A stretch of DNA of 64,000 nucleotides from Bacteroidales bacterium. Its GTDB lineage: Bacteria; Bacteroidota; Bacteroidia; Bacteroidales; UBA12077. Positions 3,834 to 27,218 of this stretch are shown one piece after another. Position 1 is the stretch's first letter. The number at the start of each line of letters is the position of its first letter. The stretch is taken from positions 1 to 64,000 of the forward strand of contig JANQHR010000062.1 of assembly GCA_028282585.1 (NCBI GenBank), in the 5' to 3' direction. The notes beneath the pieces were generated by a model, which saw nothing but the letters and a program-made list of their open reading frames with translations, did no database searches and was not told the DNA's origin. A program made the translations under genes and the position numbers.

Positions 3834-3892
3834 TTAATAAAACTATAAGTAACCTAAAAATTCATATCTTTTAAGATGTTTTAAGGCACCCA

Positions 3893-4759
3893 TTAGACCA
3901 GTTTAAGAATTCTTCTTAGATAATCTCCATATCCACTTTTATAATACTTTTCAGCACTCTGCAGCAACTGTTCTTTGGTAATAAAACCATTCAAATAGGA
4001 TATCTCTTCAATACATCCTATTTTTAGTCCTTGTCTTTTTTCTATAACACTTATAAATTCGCCGGCCTCCATTAACGATTCAAAGGTCCCTGTATCGAGC
4101 CATGCTGTTCCCCTGTTCATAATTCCAACATCCAGTTTCCCTTGCTCTAAATACCACTTATTGACATCGGTAATCTCATATTCTCCCCTCACAGAAGGCT
4201 TAATAGATTTCGCAACATCAACAACCTCGTTATTATAGAAATACAAGCCCGGAACGGCGTAATTTGATTTTGGGTATTGCGGTTTTTCTTCAATTGTTAT
4301 GGCCTTGTTTTCTTTGTCAAATTCAACAACTCCATATCTTTCAGGGTCTGAAACCCGGTATGCAAATATTGTTGCTCCGTTAGGTTTTGTTTTACTTCTT
4401 AATAAAGAACCTAATCCTGAACCATAAAAAATATTATCTCCCAGAATTAACGCGACAGGTTCATTTCCAATAAATTTTTCACCGATAACAAATGCTTGTG
4501 CCAAACCATTAGGAATTTCTTGAATTGCATACTCAAACTGACAACCAAGCTGGCTCCCATCTCCTAAAAGTCTTTTAAATCCATTTTGATCTTCAGGTGT
4601 TGTTATAATCAAAATTTCTTTAATTCCAGCCAACATTAAAACCGAAAGTGGGTAATAAATCATTGGCTTATCATACACAGGCAATAGTTGCTTACTTACT
4701 GCCATTGTTAAAGGGTACAGCCTTGTTCCTGATCCTCCGGCTAAAATTATACCTTTCAT
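3893..4759 (-). CDS. rfbA: Glucose-1-phosphate thymidylyltransferase
   Basis: [37 protein letters not shown]. Confidence 0.97.
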
Positions 4760-5814
4760 TATGATCTTAGATTATATTGCTCATTATAATATTCTAAATA
4801 ATCTCCGCTTATAATATTTGTTAACCAAACTTCATTTTCTAAATACCAATCTATGGTTTTTTCAATTCCTTCTTCAAACTGTAAGGTTGGTTTCCATCCC
4901 AGGTTATTTGATATTTTTGAAGCATCAATCGCATATCTCATATCATGACCAGCTCTATCTTTTACAAATGTTATAAGTTTTCCAGATTCACCAAGTTCTC
5001 TATTTAACTTTTTATCCATTACTTTACATAGAACCCTAATCAAATCAATATTCTTCCATTCATTAAAGCCTCCGATGTTATATGTTTCCCCTACTTTTCC
5101 TTTATGAAAAACAATATCAATAGCTTTAGCGTGATCTTCGACATAAAGCCAATCCCTGATATTTTCTCCTTTACCATATACGGGAAGTTGTTTTTTATTT
5201 TTGATATTATTTATAAATAATGGTATTAGTTTTTCTGGAAACTGATAGGGCCCATAATTATTTGAACAATTAGAAATAACAAATGGTAAACCATATGTAT
5301 TATTAAATGCTCTTACAAAATGATCGGAGCCAGCTTTAGCTGCCGAATATGGCGATTTTGGATCATAAGGAGTATCTTCTGTAAACAATCCGGTTTCTCC
5401 AAGAGAACCATATACTTCATCGGTTGAAATATGGTAAAACAGTTTATTATTAAAATCTTTTCCCCAACTTTCTTTAGCCTGATTTAGTAATGCCAAAGTA
5501 CCAATTATATTAGTCTGAGCAAATTCAAATGGATTTGAAATAGACCTATCAACATGTGATTCTGCAGCAAGATGTATTACCGAATCAATTTTATATTTAG
5601 TAAATATTTCCCTATTTTTTTCAATATCACAAATATCTCCTTTTATAAATTTATAATTAGGATAACTTTCAATATCCTTAAGGTTCTCTAAATTACCTGC
5701 ATACGTAAGCTTGTCAAGGTTTATTATTCTATAATCAGAATATTTCTTTACAAACAACTTTACCACATGAGAACCAATAAATCCAGCTCCGCCAGTAATT
5801 AGAATATTTCTCAT
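4759..5814 (-). CDS. rfbB: dTDP-glucose 4,6-dehydratase
   Basis: [45 protein letters not shown]. Confidence 0.97.
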
Positions 5815-5832
5815 ATTTTCATTAATAAAATT

Positions 5833-6879
5833 TTACTTTATATTATAAAATGACTTATACCATTCTATAAATCGCCCTACTCCTATTTTAATATCTGTAT
5901 CAGGTTTATATCTTAAATCGTTAATTAATCCCGAAACATCAGCCCATGTCTTTTCGACATCTCCTGGTTGAATTGGTAGCATATTTTTTTCAGCTTTTCT
6001 ATTTAATGATTTTTCTATTGCTTCAATAAAGTTCATTAATTTAACCGGTGAGTTATTTCCAATATTGTAAATTTTGTAAGGTGCAACCGATTCTGAAGGT
6101 TGTGATATTTTATCTTTACCTGTAGGAATATTCTCCAATACTTTAATAATTCCTTCAACAATATCGTCAATATAAGTAAAGTCTCTTTGCATGTTTCCAT
6201 GATTAAATACATCAATAGGTTTACCCTCAATAATTGCTTTAGTAAATAAAAACAATGCCATATCAGGTCTACCCCATGGTCCGTAAACCGTAAAAAATCT
6301 CAGCCCTGTAGTTGGCATTTTAAATAAATAACTATAAGTATGGGCCATTAGCTCATTTGACTTCTTACTAGCTGCATATAAGCTTATTGGATGATCAACA
6401 TTATCATTTGCTGAAAATGGCATTTGTGAATTTAATCCGTAAACGCTAGAACTACTGGCATATACCAGATGCTTTATAGAATTATGTCTACAAGCTTCTA
6501 AGATATTTGTAAAACCTAAAATATTACTGTTTATATATGCATGTGGATTTACCAAACTGTAACGTACTCCAGCTTGAGCCGCCAAATTAACAACGAGATC
6601 AAATTTTTCTTTATTAAATAATTCCACAATATTATCCTGATCCTCTAAGTTTAACTTAATAAAACTATATTTTTGATGCTTTTCTGATTGTATCAACCTA
6701 TTATATTCTAAAGAATCTTTTTTTATACCAGATTCCTGAAGTCGACCATATTTGAGATTTACATCATAGTAATCATTAATATTATCTAAACCCACTACTG
6801 TATAATCTCTTTCCAATAATGCATTAGATAAATGAAATCCTATAAAACCTGCTGTTCCGGTAATTAATACTTTTGACAT
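5833..6879 (-). CDS. NAD-dependent epimerase (UDP-glucuronate 4-epimerase / CapI-like)
   Basis: [40 protein letters not shown]. Confidence 0.92.
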
Positions 6880-6884
6880 AGACT

Positions 6885-7457
6885 CTATTTTGATTTTTCA
6901 ACAAAACCTTCTTTTAAAATATACCTTTCCTTACTTTCAAGACAAGTAGCAATTCCGCTTTCATCAAATTCCAATCGGTGCCCATACTCACTCATCCATC
7001 CTACTTGTTTCCCTGGATTACCTACCACTAAAGCATATGGTTTTACTTCTTTAGTAATTACAGCACCCGCCCCGATAAAAGCAAATTCTCCGATATCATT
7101 TCCACAAACAATGGTCGCATTTGCGCCAATCGATGCTCCTTTTTTTACAACCGTTTTTTCATATTGATCTCTTCTAATAACTGCGGATCTGGGATTAGTA
7201 ACATTTGTGAATACCATAGAAGGGCCCAAGAAAACATCATCTTCACAAATAACACCTGTATAAATCGAAACATTATTTTGAACCTTTACATTGTTTCCTA
7301 AAATAACATCAGGAGATACTACAACATTCTGTCCAATATTACAATTGTGGCCAATAATGCAGTCTTTCATAATATGAGAAAAATGCCAAATCTTGGTTCC
7401 TTCTCCTATTTGACACCCTTCGTCTATTACAGCAGTTTCATGAGCAAAGTAGTCCAT
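6885..7457 (-). CDS. wbpD: Hexapeptide N-acetyltransferase, WbpD-like
   Basis: [34 protein letters not shown]. Confidence 0.88.
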
Positions 7458-7471
7458 TATCTAATATTTTT

Positions 7472-7930
7472 CTATGATTTTTTAAATAAAGCCTGGCAAT
7501 AAGATTTAGTAGAATTTATAATCTCCATCAGTTTTGGAGCAAAAAAAAATGTCTCTTTAAAGATATTTTTAATATCTTCCATAACATATTCATGTGTTAT
7601 TTCATTTCTTAAATCTTTTATCCGACGAATTTCATCAACACTTTTAAACAACCTTCTTTTATGAGCACGGTTCACAACATCTATCATGGTTCCATGACCT
7701 TCAAATTCTACAGCATCAATACTCCTGAAAACCTTTTGGATTAGGATATCTACTACTCTTGCATACCGACTTGTAAGAGTTTCAAAAATATCGAACTCAT
7801 CAGCAGTATAATTCTCTTTTATTCCAATTCCGGAACACTTTTTATAAGACCTGTTAAACCATGAAAGTGCGTCATCAAGAATATCAAGATTCTCTTTTAA
7901 ATTAGCAATATAATCCTTTTGATTCCTCAT
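7472..7930 (-). CDS. HEPN / nucleotidyltransferase substrate-binding family protein (putative toxin)
   Basis: Helical protein with the RxxxxH motif RNEITHEY; lies directly downstream of an MNT gene. Confidence 0.75.
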   Translation of the reverse strand: MRNQKDYIANLKENLDILDDALSWFNRSYKKCSGIGIKENYTADEFDIFETLTSRYARVVDILIQKVFRSIDAVEFEGHGTMIDVVNRAHKRRLFKSVDEIRRIKDLRNEITHEYVMEDIKNIFKETFFFAPKLMEIINSTKSYCQALFKKS

Positions 7931-19494: not shown

Positions 19495-20067
19495 ATGAAT
19501 AAACAGGAAAGTATATACATGAATATCCATCAGGATATTATAGACCGGTGTAAATCGGGAGAGCAAAAGGCACAGTTTCAATTATATAAACTGTACTACA
19601 AAGCAATGTACAATACCTGCTTGCGCATTGTAAATGACAGTCTCGAGGCTGAAGATATTATGCAGGAATCGTTCTTAAAAGCGTTTGAAAAAATAAATTT
19701 CTATAAAGGAGAAGTAAGTTTCGGTGCCTGGTTAAAGAGAATTGTAATAAACCATTCTTTGGATGAATTAAGAAAGCGTAGGTTAAATACTAACTCTATT
19801 GAAGATTCGGTATATGAAATAAAAGAAGAAACTTATGAAGACCTGGAAGAAATTGAAGTAAAAGCTGATGAAATTCGCGATGAAATACTAAAGCTTCCGG
19901 AAGGTTATAGAATAGTTGTTTCGCTTTACCTAATTGAAGGATATGATCATGATGAAATAGGTAAAATACTTAAAGTGAGTAGTTCTACATCCAGATCGCA
20001 ATTTGCAAGAGGAAAAAAGAAACTAATCGAAGGTTTGAAGAAAAAAGAAATTAAAAAAATAAACTAA
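19495..20067 (+). CDS. ECF sigma-70 factor
   Basis: AEDIMQESFLKAF, FGAWLKRIVIN (region 2); LPEGYRIV..EGYDHDEIG (region 4). Confidence 0.93.
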   Translation: MNKQESIYMNIHQDIIDRCKSGEQKAQFQLYKLYYKAMYNTCLRIVNDSLEAEDIMQESFLKAFEKINFYKGEVSFGAWLKRIVINHSLDELRKRRLNTNSIEDSVYEIKEETYEDLEEIEVKADEIRDEILKLPEGYRIVVSLYLIEGYDHDEIGKILKVSSSTSRSQFARGKKKLIEGLKKKEIKKIN

Positions 20068-20069
20068 AT

Positions 20070-20627
20070 ATGAAAAATCTAGATAAATTAATACAGGAAA
20101 ATCGTCAAAGTTTCGACGTGTTCGAACCTGGAGATGGCCATTTTGAAAGATTTGAAGCTAAGTTAAAAGAATTCAATACAAAGGAAAAATCATTTACATT
20201 TGGTTTTATACTTAGGGCCGCTGTTGTAGCGGTTTTAGTCGTTCTATCGGGGCTTTGGGTTTATGACAATTTTAGTTCAAAAAACCAAAAAGGAATCGCT
20301 TTAAGTGAAATATCTGAAGAATACGGCGAAGTTGAAATGTATTATACTCATTTGGTAAATCAGAAATACGAGGAACTTCATCAGTTTCAGTTCATGGACA
20401 GTACTCAAAAAGTAATGTTAATACAGGAACTTAGTCAAATGGATTCTATTTATGAAAATCTAAAAAAAGATCTAACTACAAATCCAAACGACCAACGGGT
20501 TATTAATGCCATGATTAGGCATTATCAACTTAAAGTTGAAGTAATGAGTCACATATTAAATCAATTACAACAAGCACAAGATATAAATAAACAAAAATCA
20601 GAAAACTATGAAAGCACCAATATTTAA
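20070..20627 (+). CDS. Putative anti-sigma factor
   Basis: EPGDGHFERFEAKL N-terminus, single TM helix, directly follows the ECF gene. Confidence 0.75.
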   Translation: MKNLDKLIQENRQSFDVFEPGDGHFERFEAKLKEFNTKEKSFTFGFILRAAVVAVLVVLSGLWVYDNFSSKNQKGIALSEISEEYGEVEMYYTHLVNQKYEELHQFQFMDSTQKVMLIQELSQMDSIYENLKKDLTTNPNDQRVINAMIRHYQLKVEVMSHILNQLQQAQDINKQKSENYESTNI

Positions 20628-21690
20628 ATCCGCTTTATTACTAATAACCGTCCAATTATTGGTAATAACCTCAGTATTCGCTCTGAGTGAAGAATTCTCT
20701 AAAAATTTGCAAAAAGATTTTGATGCAGATGAAAATACTCTCTTAGTTATTGAAAATAGGTTCGGAGATGTTGACATAAACAATTGGGATAAAGATCAAG
20801 TAACGATTGATGTTACTATTACAGTTGATCACAGAAATGAAGAAAGAGCTAAAGAACTTATTGATTATATTGAAGTTCATTTTAGTCATTCAGCTAATAT
20901 CATTAAAGCAGTTACAGATATTGATGATAGATTTAGCAGATGGAATTCATTTACATCAAGTGATAACAAAGAATTTAGTATCGACTACAAAGTAAAAATT
21001 CCAAAGAATATTAAAATTGACATTGAAAACCGTTATGGTAGCGTTTTTATAAACGAAATTGATGGTCATGCAAAAATTGCTGTTAAATATGGTAATTTAA
21101 AAGTAAATAAAATGACCAGAGGAAAAACAAAACCTTTTAATGAAGTTTATCTTGGTTATTCAAATGGAATAATTGAAGAAAGTAACTGGTTAAATCTTAC
21201 GTTAAGATATTCAAAGCTGGAAATTGAAGATGTAAGGGCTTTGATGGCTGCAACTAAATATTCAAAATTATATGTTGATAAGGCTAGTTCAATTGTTTGC
21301 GAATCAAAATATGATGAATATAGATTAGGGAAAATTACAAACTTTGTTGCCAGTTCAGGTTACACTGGATTCGATATTAATGAAATTTATAAAAAGCTTG
21401 AATTTGATAATCGATATGGGAGTATAGATGTAGATTACGTTGCGGCAGATTTTGAAAAAATCAGCATTGAAAATGAATATGGAAACATTGACATTGGTAT
21501 CGATCCTGGCGCATCTTACAACATAAAAGGTTATGCAAGATATGCTGATATTGATTACCCGAATGAAGGTAGAGTAAGTAGAATTAAGGAAAGTACCTCA
21601 TTACAAATTGAAGGTTTGGTGGGAACGGATAGTAACACTAAATCCTTTGTTGAAATACAAACAAAATACGGGAATGTGGATTTGGAGTAA
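20608..21690 (+). CDS. Secreted beta-repeat protein (DUF4097/adhesin-like)
   Basis: Signal peptide; repeated N/K-R/K-Y/F-G-x-V/I motifs. Confidence 0.7.
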   Translation: MKAPIFKSALLLITVQLLVITSVFALSEEFSKNLQKDFDADENTLLVIENRFGDVDINNWDKDQVTIDVTITVDHRNEERAKELIDYIEVHFSHSANIIKAVTDIDDRFSRWNSFTSSDNKEFSIDYKVKIPKNIKIDIENRYGSVFINEIDGHAKIAVKYGNLKVNKMTRGKTKPFNEVYLGYSNGIIEESNWLNLTLRYSKLEIEDVRALMAATKYSKLYVDKASSIVCESKYDEYRLGKITNFVASSGYTGFDINEIYKKLEFDNRYGSIDVDYVAADFEKISIENEYGNIDIGIDPGASYNIKGYARYADIDYPNEGRVSRIKESTSLQIEGLVGTDSNTKSFVEIQTKYGNVDLE

Positions 21691-21865: not shown

Positions 21866-22729
21866 TTGCAAATTGATAGAGACATAATTATTGATTTTCT
21901 GTTTGACACTCTTCCAAAGGAGGAAATGTCAAAAGTGGCAAATGCCATACTTTCAGATGATGAATTAAAGAAAATTTACGAAGAAGAAAAAAATAAAATC
22001 ATTACACACCTTTATGTTGATGATGAATTACCACCATACGAACGTATTGAATTTGAATACAAATTAAAAAAAGACAATCAGATCTCAAAAGAAGTGCAAC
22101 TGCAAAAAGGAATTAACAATTCTATAGAAAATCTTAATCTGAAAGAAACACTTGAAGAAGCTTATAGAAATAGCAACCAAAGGAAACATCTTTTCTCGCC
22201 AATCTTATTTGAGAATAGGAAATTTAAACATTGGTTAGTAGCTGCTTCAATAACCATCCTTCTTATTTTTGGAGCAGGAACAACTTATCATTTTCAAACA
22301 AGGGATTCATTAGAAAACAGGCTGTATGCGAAGTTTTATGAGCCTTACAATTATGATGATAACTATATATTAAATAGCAGTTCGTTCAGTTTAGCCAAAC
22401 AAAAATATAAGGAAGGTGATTACATGAATGCCTTATTACTTCTAAAGAAACAACCATCATTAATAACTATCGAAACTGAAAGAGATTTCTTAATCGGATT
22501 ATCATTAATGGAAATTGGCAATTATGATACCGCATCAAAATATTTCGCAAAGGTCCTTTTGGAGCAAAAGGAATTTGAACACATTCCACAGGTCAGGTGG
22601 TATCTGGCACTTTGTTATTTAAAAGGGGGAGATACTGATAAAGCTGAAGAAACTTTTGGTATTATCGTAACTAAGAACAGCTATAACTATAAAAAAGCTA
22701 AAAGAATATTAAAAAAGCTTGGCAATTGA
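21866..22729 (+). CDS. Anti-sigma-like membrane protein with C-terminal TPR
   Basis: TTG start; N-terminal helical domain (HLYVDDELPPYERIEFEYKL); TM helix WLVAASITILLIFGAG; TPR-like C-terminus (WYLALCYLK..KAEETF). Confidence 0.7.
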   Translation: MQIDRDIIIDFLFDTLPKEEMSKVANAILSDDELKKIYEEEKNKIITHLYVDDELPPYERIEFEYKLKKDNQISKEVQLQKGINNSIENLNLKETLEEAYRNSNQRKHLFSPILFENRKFKHWLVAASITILLIFGAGTTYHFQTRDSLENRLYAKFYEPYNYDDNYILNSSSFSLAKQKYKEGDYMNALLLLKKQPSLITIETERDFLIGLSLMEIGNYDTASKYFAKVLLEQKEFEHIPQVRWYLALCYLKGGDTDKAEETFGIIVTKNSYNYKKAKRILKKLGN

Positions 22730-25459
22730 TTTCCTTTTCTTCATTAAAAAAAATAATACTCCTATCATACTAATTATGTAAATCAATCTCTTTAGGTACC
22801 AATTTTTATATAATTCCTTTTGGTTGCCATTTATTACAATTCCTGCCCAAAAACGCGGATGAGCAGATATCGGGTCGGTCTGTTCAAGATATCTTAATTT
22901 AGCAAGCCTTAAGGCTTCATCTTTTCGCATTCCTTTTAGCAGATTCAGGTAAAAAGAATTTAATATGTTATTTGTTGCTTTTTGGGGTGCTAACCATAAC
23001 GACATAACTATCGATTCGCTTCCGGCATACATGAAACTCCGGCTTAGGCTCAAAACACCTTCTCCTTTGGATAGTTTCCCACCCCCGGAATAACACGATG
23101 CTAAAACGACAAGTTTAGCATTTATTTGCAAGTTATATACTTCCCAGGCGTGAAGGTAGCTGTCATTTAAAGAATCATCCGGTTCGGATAAAATTAACTT
23201 CGAATTGGCAGGGTTGAGCGTATCTTCAAAACCATGCGCATAAAGTTGTATAACATCGTATTTGTTAGAGTATTCCTTAAATTTCTGTTCTGTTGCTTTT
23301 TCTCCTGTTAAGGATTTTCCTAACATTAATAATGCAATCTTCCTTACGCTTTTTAATCCTAATGGCATATGTATTAAGGAATCTTTCGAGTTTTCGTAAC
23401 CGGGTGCAATTCCCAAAAATTTGAATCTGTTATTTTGTAATGCGGTTAAACTGTTTTTATATAATGTAGCAGAATATGCATAAGCTATCGGGTATTTCTT
23501 TAATAAAAATGGTTCTTCGCGGTAATAAAGTTCATCAACACTCTTATAGGGTTTATCAACAAGTACGTCAAATGAAATAAAGTTCATTTTATCATCCGGA
23601 ATTATCAGCAGGTTTTTGTTTTGCAATAAAGGTTCTACAGGGAAAATAAGCTTCTTATAAAGATTATATGCCGAATTTCTGTATAAACGATAGTTGGATG
23701 TATGGTCCCGGTGCAAAACGGTTTTGTAGAAATCAAGGCTGGAATGAAATACACTGTCGGTGTCCTGTTTTAATAGTAAAAATGTATCCTGCGTAACAAC
23801 AAAAGTATAAAGTGAACTATCTCCTAATACATACTCCAGAATAGCTTCTTTTTTATCGATGGACTGTTGCAGTTGATTGATACTGACAATTTCCTGATTG
23901 TATTTTTGCTTATAATATTCAGGGTAACCGGATTCAAGTTTTTCAACCAGGTTTTCGAGCTCTTGTGTTAAACTAAATATTTTTTCGTTCCATTTGTCTA
24001 TTTTTACCCTATCAGGAGTTTCCTGTTTGCTTTCTTCTTCCATTTGCATCCTGATACTGCCAATTTGCTCTTTTAACCTTCGCTCATAATTTCCTAAACT
24101 GTCGGGCACTCCTGCAATCCCCCGCGCTGCCTCTTCATTTTTCAGTTCCCTTAAAACAGCATATTTGCTAAGTTCTGCGTACTTAAATGCAATTTCGGCA
24201 TATTTACCATCACCGTTAATTTCATACAAAGAATTGGCAATGTTTATTATCGACAGGTATATATCGTGTTCTTGTGATGCGAGTTGTAATTTTGAACTTT
24301 CGTACAAATATCCCGTTCGTAACTGTTCAATAAAACCAACCGTGAGCTCTAAGGTAGAAAGAGCTGTTTTTAGATTAATTTCTTTATCTTCAAGTTCTGC
24401 TAACTTTTCAAAGGCTTGTGCTTTTGCTTTTAAAATATCAATTAAATCTAGGTCGGGAAATACATCCGGCCACGGGTTTACATAAATGGAACGATCATTG
24501 AAATCATATATTTTGGAAATTAATGATTGCTGGTAATAGTGTAGTGCTTGTTTGTAATTCTCCTTCTTGTAATGTAATTGCCCTAAGTTTTGTACACATA
24601 AAGACGTGTATGGATGTTTTTCGCCAAGCATTTTAATTAAGATTTTATGAGCTTTCTGGTAAAGCTGTTCACTTTTTGAAAAATATCCTGTTTCAGAATA
24701 AAAAACAGCATAATTAACATAAGCCATTGCGGTCATGTAATGCTTTTCTCCGAACTCTTTTTTATATGATTCAATAGCCTTTTTAAAATAAATATTTGCT
24801 TTATCCAAGCTGTCAAGGTTTTGATAAATTAATCCACAATTATAATATGCATTCCCAGCAATTTTAATTTGGTTTTTTTTAGCAATCTGTATACTTTGCA
24901 AACTTTTTTTTAAAGCGAGATTCATTTGCCCAGATTTATAATAGGTGTATCCCTGATTAAGATAATTATTTACAATCCAATGGTATTTATTTACCTTGTC
25001 ACTTTTTTTAAGTATTGATAGTGAACTTTCATAATAAAAGATAGCCTTTGAGTAATCTCCTGTTAAAGAATAAATCATGGCAATGTTTCCATTAATAACT
25101 GATAAAATGTAATCATCATCGGTAAATTCCAGTGCCTTATTATAATAATTAATTGCTTTAGATAAATTACCCTGCCTTTTAAATATCACCCCTAACCTAT
25201 TAAAAACTTTGTAGTAAGCAGGCTGTATATCATTAGGCATTTCACCTTTTAACAAAAGAATTTCATTTAAACCATCAATAGCTCCGTTATAATCCCCTGA
25301 CTGATATAGAACTTTTGTACTATCATAAAGCTTGGTAAGATAATTTTTATCAGTAAGTTGTTGTGCTCCTAACTTTGATACACTAAGGAATGTATTGATC
25401 AACAATAAAATAATTAGTTTGAAAATCAAGGAATTAAATTGTTGTTTAAAAGAATTCAT
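22709..25459 (-). CDS. TPR-CHAT domain protein (caspase-like clan CD protease)
   Basis: Signal peptide, multiple TPRs, CHAT motifs LLIIPD, LYAHG (His), LVVLASC (Cys), GEGVLSL, SLW, HPRFWA; C-terminal TM helix. Confidence 0.92.
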   Translation of the reverse strand: MNSFKQQFNSLIFKLIILLLINTFLSVSKLGAQQLTDKNYLTKLYDSTKVLYQSGDYNGAIDGLNEILLLKGEMPNDIQPAYYKVFNRLGVIFKRQGNLSKAINYYNKALEFTDDDYILSVINGNIAMIYSLTGDYSKAIFYYESSLSILKKSDKVNKYHWIVNNYLNQGYTYYKSGQMNLALKKSLQSIQIAKKNQIKIAGNAYYNCGLIYQNLDSLDKANIYFKKAIESYKKEFGEKHYMTAMAYVNYAVFYSETGYFSKSEQLYQKAHKILIKMLGEKHPYTSLCVQNLGQLHYKKENYKQALHYYQQSLISKIYDFNDRSIYVNPWPDVFPDLDLIDILKAKAQAFEKLAELEDKEINLKTALSTLELTVGFIEQLRTGYLYESSKLQLASQEHDIYLSIINIANSLYEINGDGKYAEIAFKYAELSKYAVLRELKNEEAARGIAGVPDSLGNYERRLKEQIGSIRMQMEEESKQETPDRVKIDKWNEKIFSLTQELENLVEKLESGYPEYYKQKYNQEIVSINQLQQSIDKKEAILEYVLGDSSLYTFVVTQDTFLLLKQDTDSVFHSSLDFYKTVLHRDHTSNYRLYRNSAYNLYKKLIFPVEPLLQNKNLLIIPDDKMNFISFDVLVDKPYKSVDELYYREEPFLLKKYPIAYAYSATLYKNSLTALQNNRFKFLGIAPGYENSKDSLIHMPLGLKSVRKIALLMLGKSLTGEKATEQKFKEYSNKYDVIQLYAHGFEDTLNPANSKLILSEPDDSLNDSYLHAWEVYNLQINAKLVVLASCYSGGGKLSKGEGVLSLSRSFMYAGSESIVMSLWLAPQKATNNILNSFYLNLLKGMRKDEALRLAKLRYLEQTDPISAHPRFWAGIVINGNQKELYKNWYLKRLIYIISMIGVLFFLMKKRKSIAKLF

Positions 25460-25487
25460 TATATTTTGCCCGTGTTCTTAGTTAGAA

Positions 25488-25495
25488 CAAAAATA
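25488..25495 (-). promoter_or_regulatory. Bacteroidota -7 promoter element for the CHAT gene
   Basis: TATTTTTG on the minus strand ~30 nt upstream of ATG 25459. Confidence 0.45.
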
Positions 25496-25518: not shown

Positions 25519-25647
25519 ATGAAAACAAGAAAAAAAAGAAAAGTGAAAAAAGGATTCAAAGTATTCAGTATCCTTAAAACAAAAGAATTATTGCAAATCA
25601 GAGGTGGTGATGGAGCCCCAACAGGGAATGATAACGATTTTGATTAG
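25519..25647 (+). CDS. Double-glycine leader peptide 1 (42 aa): MKTRKKRKVKKGFKVFSILKTKELLQIRGG-DGAPTGNDNDFD
   Basis: Manual translation, absent from the ORF track; LxxxELxxIxGG leader motif; paralog 279 bp downstream. Confidence 0.85.
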   Translation: MKTRKKRKVKKGFKVFSILKTKELLQIRGGDGAPTGNDNDFD

Positions 25648-25675
25648 TACTATTAATCATTGTTGTTTAATCCAT

Positions 25676-25782
25676 CCTGTTGGTTGGCCAGTGTCAATAA
25701 GTTAAGGAATATTCACCCTCTGTCCTTTGGACAGGAGGATAGGGGGTGAGCCTTAATTAATTACCATACGCCGGTTGACAGG
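25676..25782 (+). other. Structured intergenic RNA element between the peptide genes
   Basis: Nested stems cctgttggttggc/gccggttgacagg, ttaagg/ccttaa, tcacc/ggtga, ctgtcc/ggacag. Confidence 0.55.
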
Positions 25783-25797
25783 TTAAAATCTTAAATT

Positions 25798-25923
25798 ATG
25801 AAAACAAGAAAAAAAAGAAAAGTGAAAAAAATGGCAAAAGCGGTTCAAATTCTTAAAGCAAAAGAATTGTTAAATATCAGGGGTGGTGGAGACCCAACAG
25901 GGAATGATAACGATTTTGATTAA
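25798..25923 (+). CDS. Double-glycine leader peptide 2 (41 aa): MKTRKKRKVKKMAKAVQILKAKELLNIRGG-GDPTGNDNDFD
   Basis: Manual translation; same leader motif and identical last 9 residues as peptide 1. Confidence 0.85.
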   Translation: MKTRKKRKVKKMAKAVQILKAKELLNIRGGGDPTGNDNDFD

Positions 25924-26056
25924 TTGCATAACCATATTAAACTAACCGGATTGTATTATTGGAGCAGTTTAAAAATTTAACTGCTTATTTAATCAGAACA
26001 ACAGGTAATGTGGGAAACCAAACCTTGTTGAAAGGAAATTGGTAGTATCTAAATAG

Positions 26057-26091
26057 TGTAAAAGGTTCGGAGCAATTCGAACCTTTTATAC
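26057..26091. terminator. Bidirectional intrinsic terminator
   Basis: aaaaggttcg-gagcaatt-cgaacctttt between the peptide genes and the convergent phosphatase. Confidence 0.75.
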
Positions 26092-26102
26092 TGTTTACTT
26101 TT

Positions 26103-27218
26103 TTAATTATCTGCTTGATTGTGCCCTGAAAATACCTTCTTTTCAAAACCAAATGCTTTCATCATTTTTTCAAAGATATCCGTGTTTTCATAAATCCCAC
26201 CAAATTCTTCAGCACCAGGGCCATAAGCGAAAACCGGAACCATGTTCGAAGTATGATGCTCTGTTGAAAAATGAGTTTCAATGGTTCTGGTTTCCATATT
26301 GCCTTCAACTATTGTAAGTCCTCCAGTTTCGTGATCAGAAGTAACTATTAACAAGGTTTCACCATCTGCTTTTGCAAACTCTAGCGCTTTTGCCACCGCA
26401 TTATCAAAATCAATAGTTTCAGTGATAACATAATCGATATCATTATCATGTCCTGCCCAATCAATTTGAGATCCTTCAACCATTAAGAAAAATCCTGTAT
26501 CATTTTTCTTTAAAATCTCGATAGCCTTTTGAGTTGATTGCGGAAGCATATCTCCTCGTCCATTTAATATCTCGGGATTATGACCTTCTGCTGTAAACAC
26601 AGCATATTTTCCATCATTTCTTGTATTCAGATTTTCGATACCGTTCACAATATTATATTTTCTCTGCCTTAGAGAGTCCAATAAATTCAAACCGTCTTCT
26701 CGTTGCACAAAATGTTTTCTCCCTCCTCCGATGAATAAATCAATATCAACATCTAAAAAATCGCGCGCTATATTTTCATAATTATTTCTATGTAGCTCAT
26801 GAGCAATAAACGATGCAGGTGTTGCATGTAAAATTGAACTTGTGGAAACTAATCCGGTAGCTAATTTATATTCCTCAGCATATTCCAATATAGTTTTAAC
26901 TGCATTACCTGCAGTATCAACACTAATACTTTGATTGTTAGTTTTAACTCCTGTTGCTATTGCCGTTCCTGCCGCTCCGGAATCGGTAATATAATCAGAT
27001 GCGGAGTATGTTTTTTGTAACCCAACAACTTTAAATTTTTCCATATGAAGAGGTTTCTCTGAAACAGACATTGCCGCATATAGTTGACTGACACCCATTC
27101 CATCACCAATCATTAATATTATATTTTTTGCCTTTTGGGTCTGAATTTGGTTTGTTTGGTCTTGCTTACATGAAAATAGTAAGGCAAAAACGGCAAGAAC
27201 AATTATGATTCTTTTCAT
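26103..27218 (-). CDS. Alkaline phosphatase, lipoprotein
   Basis: IGDGMG, TDSGAAGTA, VEGSQIDWAGH, SDHETGG; lipobox LFSC. Confidence 0.95.
   Translation of the reverse strand: MKRIIIVLAVFALLFSCKQDQTNQIQTQKAKNIILMIGDGMGVSQLYAAMSVSEKPLHMEKFKVVGLQKTYSASDYITDSGAAGTAIATGVKTNNQSISVDTAGNAVKTILEYAEEYKLATGLVSTSSILHATPASFIAHELHRNNYENIARDFLDVDIDLFIGGGRKHFVQREDGLNLLDSLRQRKYNIVNGIENLNTRNDGKYAVFTAEGHNPEILNGRGDMLPQSTQKAIEILKKNDTGFFLMVEGSQIDWAGHDNDIDYVITETIDFDNAVAKALEFAKADGETLLIVTSDHETGGLTIVEGNMETRTIETHFSTEHHTSNMVPVFAYGPGAEEFGGIYENTDIFEKMMKAFGFEKKVFSGHNQADN

Follow-up and report, generated by a model that had tools for sequence, protein, structure and literature searches.

Tandem double-glycine-leader peptide genes divergent from a TPR-CHAT protease gene in a Bacteroidales genome: candidate ligands of a periplasmic sensor-protease

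The window analysed here, a 64,000-nucleotide stretch of contig JANQHR010000062.1 (positions 1 to 64,000, forward strand) from the Bacteroidales assembly GCA_028282585.1, contains two short, unannotated open reading frames (ORFs) in tandem on the + strand, peptide gene 1 (25519..25647) and peptide gene 2 (25798..25923), whose products begin with the same basic segment and end in the same acidic tail, PTGNDNDFD. Upstream of them, on the opposite strand, starts the gene of a large protein with tetratricopeptide repeats (TPRs) and a caspase-like CHAT domain (22709..25459, – strand). What do the two small ORFs encode, and what has their product to do with this neighbour? Judged from the sequence, both ORFs are real genes for precursors with a double-glycine (GG) leader, and a functional link between the peptides and the TPR-CHAT protein is strongly supported. 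As to the nature of this link, we propose that the peptides are exported, autoinducer-like ligands of a cognate periplasmic TPR-CHAT sensor-protease, not antibiotics, a reading to which we give an even chance of being right.

Peptide gene 1 encodes a 42-amino-acid (aa) precursor consisting of a basic 30-aa GG leader and the 12-aa core DGAPTGNDNDFD; peptide gene 2 encodes a 41-aa paralogue with the 11-aa core GDPTGNDNDFD. The start-to-start spacing of the two ORFs is 279 bp, with an intervening gap of 150 bp. A codon-by-codon comparison bore out the pattern described in a first-pass annotation of this DNA: codons 1–11 (33 nt) and codons 34–42 are the same DNA in both genes, ILKxKELLxIRGG is retained in the middle, copy 2 is without codon D31, directly past the GG, and A33D is one further change. 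The basic leader and the acidic, Cys-free cores that it had pointed out are likewise present in both ORFs, each core having four Asp and neither Cys nor basic residues. The DNA likeness of the two copies is limited to the ORF plus ~15–20 nt upstream; identity between the copies falls to 21/60 in the 60 nt upstream and to 25/60 in the 60 nt downstream. The tandem-copy pattern exceeds chance, since both ORFs match a profile of their family (E = 2.4e-22 for peptide 1 and 2.6e-18 for peptide 2) and relatives occur in other genomes (see below).

The conserved ends had been taken as a fit to selection on a peptide product. The ends are identical as claimed, but selection as their simple cause did not hold up: third-codon positions differ at 0/24 sites in the ends versus 10/17 in the middle (codons 12–28; Fisher p = 1.7e-5), and counting all positions the middle differs at 20/51 versus 1/72 in the ends (p = 2.3e-8). 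Since synonymous sites in the ends are also unchanged, peptide selection alone does not explain their identity. The same end codons differ in orthologues, which disfavours a fixed nucleotide requirement there. Gene conversion or recombination between the two tandem genes, or else a constraint at the nucleotide level, appears to account best for the mosaic of identity.

Further copies, for which the first-pass annotation had proposed a search, exist. A protein database search returned five further relatives of 40–47 aa that share the leader and have comparable acidic tails; in a whole-genome search, relatives turned up in 5/36 further genomes of this genus and in 0/24 genomes from 24 other families. 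A 28-member profile gave 53 matches in total, distributed over 16 of the 56 genomes of the family, among which the tight subfamily (E < 1e-10) is limited to G000 (the window's own genome), G023, G019 and G016. When the best 18 candidates per genome were considered in an order-wide draw of 401 genomes, 2/401 had a match at E ≤ 1e-5, both in the window's genus, and the tight subfamily was not found in the genomes of other families at this threshold. Frame-disrupting mutations in relatives, named beforehand as the sign that would speak against a peptide product, were looked for: the frame is open in 51/53 profile matches, both stop-bearing matches belong to G016 (27 matches), and indels among the relatives keep the frame.

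Over the 23 members with DNA available, the ratio of nonsynonymous to synonymous differences (pN/pS) was lowest in the leader helix (0.33), higher in the basic N-terminus (0.74) and highest in the core (0.92). When the core of the window peptide was compared with its orthologues in G023 and G019, pS was 0.86 and 0.73 and pN 0.17 and 0.21, respectively. These values point to purifying selection on the leader and to a core that diversifies between paralogues but is under purifying selection between orthologues; a conserved leader followed by a variable core is the pattern of exported peptides.

G016 (6.8 Mb, same genus) has 27 peptide and 16 CHAT matches, and up to five peptide genes stand in tandem beside a single CHAT gene (example loci are L038, L041 and L044). 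One of its CHAT paralogues is shortened to the TPR part (526 aa, L044 877..2457).

To which class of precursor do the leaders belong? The double-glycine consensus has hydrophobic residues at positions –4, –7 and –12, Glu at –8 and Gly-Gly at –2/–1. The two leaders, ILKTKELLQIRGG and ILKAKELLNIRGG, agree with it (ILKTKELLQIRGG: L–12, E–8, L–7, I–4, G–2, G–1), and across the 28 family members L, E, L/I and GG vary scarcely or not at all. A comparison with profile hidden Markov models (HMMs) of GG-precursor families, which had also been proposed, matched ComC most (Pfam, 16/28 members at E ≤ 0.1, best 2.5e-5; NCBIfam, 10/28), and GG-leader bacteriocin families were matched by family members as well. 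Peptide 1 has weak ComC and bacteriocin-leader matches, and both window peptides stay below the curated cut-offs: peptide 1 scored 16.3 bits against ComC (PF03047; cut-off 20.4 bits), and peptide 2 gave no ComC match at E ≤ 1. Formal ComC membership was therefore rejected despite the likeness of the leader. The nearest Protein Atlas clusters of the peptide, which are leads only, are unnamed small proteins (0.89) and ComC (0.85).

The genome encodes three full-length C39-type ATP-binding cassette (ABC) transporters (722–733 aa, with a DCG catalytic motif) on contigs C125, C149 and C105. Two of the three have an adjacent HlyD gene; a class-II-like bacteriocin locus contains one of them, and a lanthipeptide locus another. 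As all three are on other contigs, the peptides can be linked to a C39 transporter only in trans. The first-pass annotation had reported the window to be without a C39-ABC transporter, lanthionine synthetase, radical-SAM or ATP-grasp enzyme, and a Pfam scan of the 42 window ORFs of at least 130 aa agrees with it on each. Its suggestion of maturation in trans holds in part: exporters present elsewhere in the genome make it possible, but a modified-peptide product is poorly supported (see below).

The arrangement of peptide and CHAT genes is conserved. In the window, the start codons of peptide gene 1 and of the CHAT gene are divergent with 59 bp between them, and in all 12 contexts first examined the peptides adjoin a TPR-CHAT protein or a contig end. 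Across the profile matches, a divergent CHAT-domain match lies 1.83–2.68 kb from 37/53 peptides. Among the other 16, 11 are at contig ends (5 with the TPR part visible), 3 are beside a truncated TPR-only paralogue, and 2 are exceptions, one peptide being beside a dipeptidyl peptidase IV gene and one having a stop. Seven loci were also chosen from the CHAT list alone; 5 had a divergent GG ORF, and the other 2 start at most 152 bases from a contig end. As an out-of-sample set, 80 metagenome loci were retrieved with the CHAT alignment (27–63% identity) and scanned with a leader HMM on both strands (E ≤ 0.01). It gave 33 hits among 3086 small ORFs, all of them (33/33) divergent from the CHAT gene and immediately upstream of it, and matches were present at 25/48 evaluable loci. 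The neighbouring CHAT protease had been suggested as a possible processing enzyme of the peptides. Of this suggestion, the functional pairing is upheld by the conserved divergent synteny; processing by the CHAT domain is disfavoured by the predicted docking of the peptide in the TPR groove, away from Cys789 (see below).

The candidate receptor, the TPR-CHAT protein, has 916 aa (Pfam CHAT, E = 3.9e-45, plus TPRs) and consists of a signal-peptide-like N-terminus, ~7 TPR pairs, a helical linker, the caspase-like CHAT domain and a C-terminal anchor. Its hydrophobic segments are at residues 7–33 and 887–907, with a basic tail after the second. Because of the signal-peptide-like N-terminus and the C-terminal transmembrane (TM) segment with its basic tail, the bulk of the protein should face the periplasm. 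Within the catalytic dyad H738/C789, C789 is invariant and H738 is present in at least 90% in 11 homologues, and the protease looks intact. The structure model has a mean predicted local distance difference test (pLDDT) score of 73, with 85–95 in the TPR part, and its best full-length fold matches by Foldseek are DdvA, Csx29 and separase. The DdvA entries 8rw5 and 8rot rank 1 and 6 (E = 9e-12 and 1e-10) with low template-modelling scores of ~0.2, as expected for flexible multidomain proteins. Sequence likeness between DdvA and the window CHAT protein was not detected by phmmer; a sequence search of solved structures with the CHAT protein returned TPR proteins only, including Hop/Sti1, and no CHAT entries.

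A third gene is a conserved member of the peptide/CHAT unit. It encodes a single-pass TM-TPR membrane protein (21866..22729, + strand; start TTG 21866 or ATG 21926) with its TM segment at residues 123–141 and a C-terminal periplasmic domain of 3 TPRs, is convergent with the CHAT gene and overlaps its 3' end. Homologues are found beside the CHAT gene in 9 other compared loci. The TPR domain resembles those of YbgF and BamD (Z = 16.6 and 15.6) in a fold search that is dominated by this C-terminal domain and uninformative on the N-terminal domain. The neighbours of the TM-TPR protein in the Protein Atlas point to Bacteroidota as the source of the genome.

Could the peptide bind the TPR-CHAT protein? 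A complex was predicted from the CHAT ectodomain (residues 34–885, 11-row alignment) and the precursor (28-row alignment), and the interface score ipSAE (interaction prediction score from aligned errors) was 0.64 (runs 0.64, 0.64 and 0.67), compared with 0.01 for the best control. A score of 0.64 is reached by 116/157 solved complexes and by 2/215 mismatched pairs, counts that serve as a rough guide here since the alignments were custom and small. Contacts agreed between runs to at least 39%, and the pLDDT of the peptide partner was 37–39. The predicted interface places peptide residues 32 and 34–42, the latter being the tail PTGNDNDFD, against TPR residues 46–249, with no contact near Cys789. 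The contacted groove has an Asn ladder (N87, N125, N164, N168, N207 and N249) and a basic rim (K49, K84, R88, K94, R95 and K175); in the model D38 pairs with K94/R95, D40 with R88/K49, and the peptide with the Asn ladder. Such a basic, Asn-lined groove would be chemically sensible for an extended acidic peptide. The groove Asn residues recur in distant metagenome relatives (N125 in 42/47, N168 in 36/47 and N249 in 36/47). Because the core tail is predicted in the TPR groove, away from Cys789, we prefer a ligand of the TPR-CHAT sensor over a substrate of the CHAT domain.

Residue 88 of the receptor touches peptide positions 40–41 in the predicted complex. R88 is found in 11/18 pairs, and in 9/11 of these all tails end in D-[FL]-D; where the residue is W88 (5 loci) or Q88 (2 loci), tails are E-I-x or E-F-D in 7/7. 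In a tree of the sequence from residue 331 to the end, residue 88 and the tail each changed repeatedly, with minima of 7 and 6 changes for the two traits. A metagenome scan with the residue-88/tail rule fixed beforehand yielded one new subfamily pair only (L092), the peptide of which is identical to that of G023. This co-variation is a lead, a hint of matched specificity between peptide and groove.

The ligand reading can be drawn out as follows. One of the three C39-ABC transporters would cut after Gly30 and export the unmodified 12-mer DGAPTGNDNDFD and the 11-mer GDPTGNDNDFD. In the periplasm, the shared tail is predicted to dock in the concave N-terminal TPR groove of the membrane-anchored TPR-CHAT protease. 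Occupancy of the groove would then turn the caspase-like CHAT domain on or off, and its likeliest target would be the co-conserved TM-TPR membrane protein, through which gene expression might be altered. The genes, their family, the selection acting on it, the synteny, the topology signals and the intact dyad are what the analysis shows. The binding is a prediction, and export, regulation and substrate are steps that we infer. More tentatively, and with less confidence, we suggest a form of cell-cell or self-signalling in Bacteroidota, in which exported GG mini-peptides sensed by the TPR groove of a CHAT protease would give rise to a proteolytic signal across the membrane. Paralogous peptide/receptor pairs, more than 12 of them in one genome, might then diversify like pherotypes via matched changes in the tail and in groove residues such as 88, and the peptides would supply the missing ligand class for DdvA-like sensors.

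Several points weigh against the ligand reading. A C39-ABC exporter is not linked in cis, none having been found by Pfam among the 42 larger ORFs of the window, and a leader-HMM match is missing in 23/48 evaluable metagenome CHAT loci. The complex score is the model's own confidence, the peptide pLDDT being low, and the pass may partly reflect a generic likeness to solved complexes of TPRs with acidic peptides, such as Hop-EEVD. The residue-88 co-variation is non-significant given relatedness (4 independent pairs, 3.3 the same way and 0 opposite; sign test p = 0.125–0.5), and the residue-88/tail classes were defined after inspection of the data. On the output side, the anti-sigma likeness of the TM-TPR protein is non-significant (NF052375, E = 0.049). 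The gene of an extracytoplasmic function (ECF)-type sigma factor upstream of the TM-TPR gene (19495..20067, + strand) was tried as a conserved partner and rejected, as among the compared loci a homologue was found by blastp only at the G006 locus (27% identity). Activation, inhibition or cleavage of the peptide itself may all be compatible with the data.

Cleavage of the peptide is the essence of one alternative, in which the peptides are substrates or pro-forms, the TPR groove is a recruiting exosite, and the CHAT domain trims them or removes the leader. The conserved adjacency and the intact catalytic dyad speak for it, and separase and Csx29, among the best fold matches, are known to dock substrates via non-catalytic surfaces. 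However, the leader is of the canonical C39 double-glycine type and C39 exporters are present in the genome, the confident predicted contacts are confined to TPR residues 46–249 with none near C789, and, with the very C-terminal end of the peptide predicted as the bound part, no piece remains to be removed. We consider CHAT substrates improbable.

Another alternative keeps the peptides as ligands but has them bind elsewhere, for instance to the TM-TPR protein through its periplasmic TPR domain, with TPR-CHAT acting downstream of that receptor. The TM-TPR protein belongs to the conserved unit and its ectodomain has a fold of peptide-binding type; a second TM-TPR gene together with a HisKA kinase gene follows the peptide genes in G006, G009 and G065. 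Against this stands the TPR groove of the CHAT protein itself, which is already predicted to bind well relative to the controls (0.64 versus 0.01), and a different receptor seems unlikely to us.

Could the ORFs instead encode bacteriocin precursors or ribosomally synthesised peptides with post-translational modifications (RiPPs), modified or matured in trans and antimicrobial, with the CHAT protein as regulator or immunity factor? A conserved leader with a hypervariable core (pN/pS 0.33 versus 0.92) is what such precursors would also present, radical-SAM/SPASM genes occur near the related loci L040 and L046, and the other TPR-CHAT gene of this genome, on contig C149, is divergent to a GG-leader lanthipeptide precursor gene accompanied by LanB, LanC and peptidase-containing ABC transporter (PCAT) genes. 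The cores at hand do not look the part, however. Class II bacteriocins are ~25–60 residues long when mature, cationic or amphipathic, and usually come with an immunity gene, whereas the cores here have 11–12 residues, four of them Asp, lack Cys and are neither basic nor amphipathic, and no small membrane immunity-like ORF is conserved alongside. Nor is a modifying enzyme co-conserved with the family: none is present in the window or in the other annotated class-A contexts, and among the annotated contexts radical-SAM/SPASM genes are found only near L040 and L046. We think an antimicrobial product quite unlikely.

The least probable reading is that the ORFs are untranslated and that the duplicated DNA serves the CHAT promoter region as a regulatory or RNA element. 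In its favour, the 59 bp between the start codons means that the promoters must overlap coding sequence, and strong hairpins are present at 25712–25750 and 26050–26097. Against it, 51/53 frames are open, indels are in frame, leader pN/pS is far under 1, the DNA likeness ends at the ORF borders and there are no Rfam family matches.

How does a peptide ligand of a TPR-CHAT protease compare with known systems? The window peptides resemble the streptococcal ComC/BlpC pheromones (PF03047, NF033214) in being small LxxxELxxIxGG precursors that go with an adjacent, here putative, sensor gene and C39-ABC exporters, and would resemble them also in a short core exported unmodified; the related G006 and G009 loci carry HisKA kinase and LytTR genes. 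In contrast, the host of the window is Gram-negative, the core is an acidic 11–12-mer, the exporter is unlinked, and the putative sensor is a periplasmic TPR-CHAT protease rather than a ComD-type histidine kinase.

In the RRNPP systems of Bacillota (Rap-Phr, PlcR-PapR and NprR-NprX), activity resides in the C-terminal end of the precursor, bound in a TPR groove, and the receptors are cytoplasmic, with a helix-turn-helix (HTH) or phosphatase output and peptide import via Opp. Similarly, a TPR receptor gene is paired here with a small peptide gene, and many paralogous pairs per genome are possible, as the 27 peptide and 16 CHAT matches of G016 indicate. Binding of the C-terminal tail in the TPR groove in the RRNPP manner is for our pair a prediction only (0.64 versus 0.01 for the best control, residues 32 and 34–42). 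The window protein is not a cytoplasmic TPR receptor with HTH or phosphatase output; it has a signal peptide, a membrane anchor and a caspase-like output, and the leader of its peptide is of the GG and not of the Sec type. Binding of signalling peptides by RRNPP regulators is described in PMC7430634 and PMC4873490.

DdvA, of the DdvA/DdvS system of Myxococcus xanthus (PDB 8rot and 8rw5), is described in PMC11506125 as having a membrane-anchored, periplasm-facing TPR-CHAT module that is thought to sense an extracytoplasmic signal, which according to that paper has not been found so far. DdvA is itself the anti-sigma factor: its N-terminal part comprises a zinc anti-sigma domain and a TM segment, and its His-Cys site is described as incomplete (PMC11506125). 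The window protein shares the periplasm-facing TPR-CHAT architecture and has DdvA as its top structural match. Unlike DdvA, it begins with a signal peptide, is anchored at its C-terminus and combines a conserved dyad with a separate TM-TPR partner. It lacks the N-terminal zinc anti-sigma domain that binds an adjacent ECF sigma factor, and the nearby sigma gene at 19495..20067 is not conserved with the unit in the closest loci; conversely, a peptide partner is not reported for DdvA.

Carboxylate-clamp TPRs of Hop and CHIP bind the acidic C-terminal EEVD of Hsp70/Hsp90, as described in PMC2939883 and PMC8913300. In the complex predicted here, a short acidic C-terminal tail is likewise extended in a basic, Asn-lined groove. 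The clamp proteins are eukaryotic cytosolic co-chaperones and the analogy is one of binding mode only. Csx29 (Craspase) and separase, recovered as fold matches, are like the window protein in combining a TPR-CHAT architecture with an allosterically controlled His-Cys protease, as set out in PMC11506125. Unlike the window protein, they are cytoplasmic, their triggers are RNA-bound Cas7-11 or securin/cyclin, and a small exported peptide is not involved.

The combination of a GG peptide with a TPR-CHAT protein was not found in the main texts, titles and abstracts of the literature searched on CHAT, double-glycine peptides and Bacteroidetes peptide signalling or quorum sensing. Within the same literature, a periplasmic TPR-CHAT protein is treated in the DdvA paper only, and papers joining CHAT with ECF or anti-sigma factors are all on DdvA or CRISPR. 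A paper on RiPP mining in Bacteroidales mentions, in its main text, TPR genes alone in some radical-SAM clusters (PMC10352776). The parts are thus known, namely GG-leader pheromones, TPR peptide receptors and periplasmic TPR-CHAT sensing, and their combination looks undescribed in the literature searched. Peptide signalling is a textbook subject in Gram-positive bacteria and almost unknown in Bacteroidota. If the ligand reading is true, the TPR-CHAT proteins would be a new receptor class for bacterial peptide signals, which would explain many Bacteroidota genes annotated as 'TPR/CHAT domain protein', and small unannotated ORFs beside CHAT genes would be functional partners overlooked by present annotation.

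Non-coding elements surround the peptide genes. Inside the 59-bp divergent gap is an imperfect palindrome, GTTCTTAGTTAGAAC (25474..25488), which abuts a TAnnTTTG box on the CHAT strand (25488–25495) and is a candidate operator. A GTTCT..AGAAC-like element is also present in the intergenic regions of L035, L036 and L041. L037, L038, L040, L043 and L044 carry CATAC..GTATG in place of GTTCT..AGAAC, one arm of which takes in the CHAT start codon, and the 26–70 bp separating the divergent start codons thus carry a short inverted repeat peculiar to each subclass. The window shows no enrichment of TAnnTTTG boxes (89 found versus 107 expected), their placement is inconsistent across loci, and no promoter is proposed on their account.

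Between the peptide genes, a hairpin with a 17-bp stem (25712..25750, + strand) is part of a longer pairing (25676–25783); the segment 25645–25800 has a minimum free energy of –53.3 kcal/mol (z = –4.69), and 0/200 shuffles were equally stable. The hairpin could be an internal terminator, an attenuator or an RNA-stabilising element. No second copy of the 146-nt spacer that separates the two genes exists in the genome, so it is not a repeated mobile element. Behind peptide gene 2, a hairpin with a 22-bp stem and a T run (26050..26097; z = –6.64) probably terminates the peptide transcript and serves the convergent alkaline phosphatase gene (26103..27218, – strand) as well. Rfam gave no family matches for the hairpins and chance-level ones only at the terminator.

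CHAT-linked peptides of a 'WPP' class, with cores like DGDPxDDDLWPP..., are encoded at L045, L078–L082 and L088–L090. They have an element of their own, GGGTCACCTTTTT-N(about 17)-AATAGGTGA, ~60–100 nt upstream of the first peptide ATG and including an inverted repeat TCACCT/AGGTGA, which is a candidate regulator site or ECF-type promoter.

The ECF-type sigma gene in the window is followed by 20070..20627, encoding a 185-aa single-pass membrane protein, and 20608..21690, encoding a 360-aa exported protein; neither had a Pfam or NCBIfam family match at the thresholds used. The two may be an uncharacterised anti-sigma pair, and the sigma operon (19495..21690) is a possible output of the peptide/CHAT unit.

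Elsewhere in G000, contig C149 (L066) encodes the genome's other large TPR-CHAT protein (3891..7256, – strand; 1121 aa) with a signal peptide; a C-terminal anchor was not seen in it. Divergent to its gene is 7508..7702 (+ strand), encoding a 64-aa, GG-leader, Cys-rich precursor of lanthipeptide type, downstream of which are two LanC genes, a split LanB gene, a C39-ABC exporter and HlyD; on the other side are a TPR-HisKA_3 kinase and a LuxR-type regulator. By this layout, the pairing of a TPR-CHAT protein with a GG peptide occurs also with a true RiPP cluster.

At the more distant loci L045 (G006:C1) and L046 (G009:C35), next after the peptide genes come a second TM-TPR gene, a gene for a sensor-less HisKA protein and two LytTR-domain genes. 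Cys-rich GG peptides and a C39-ABC exporter are further features of the G006 locus; those of the G009 locus are a radical-SAM/SPASM gene and a MacB-like permease. The layout of both recalls that of Blp/Com circuits.

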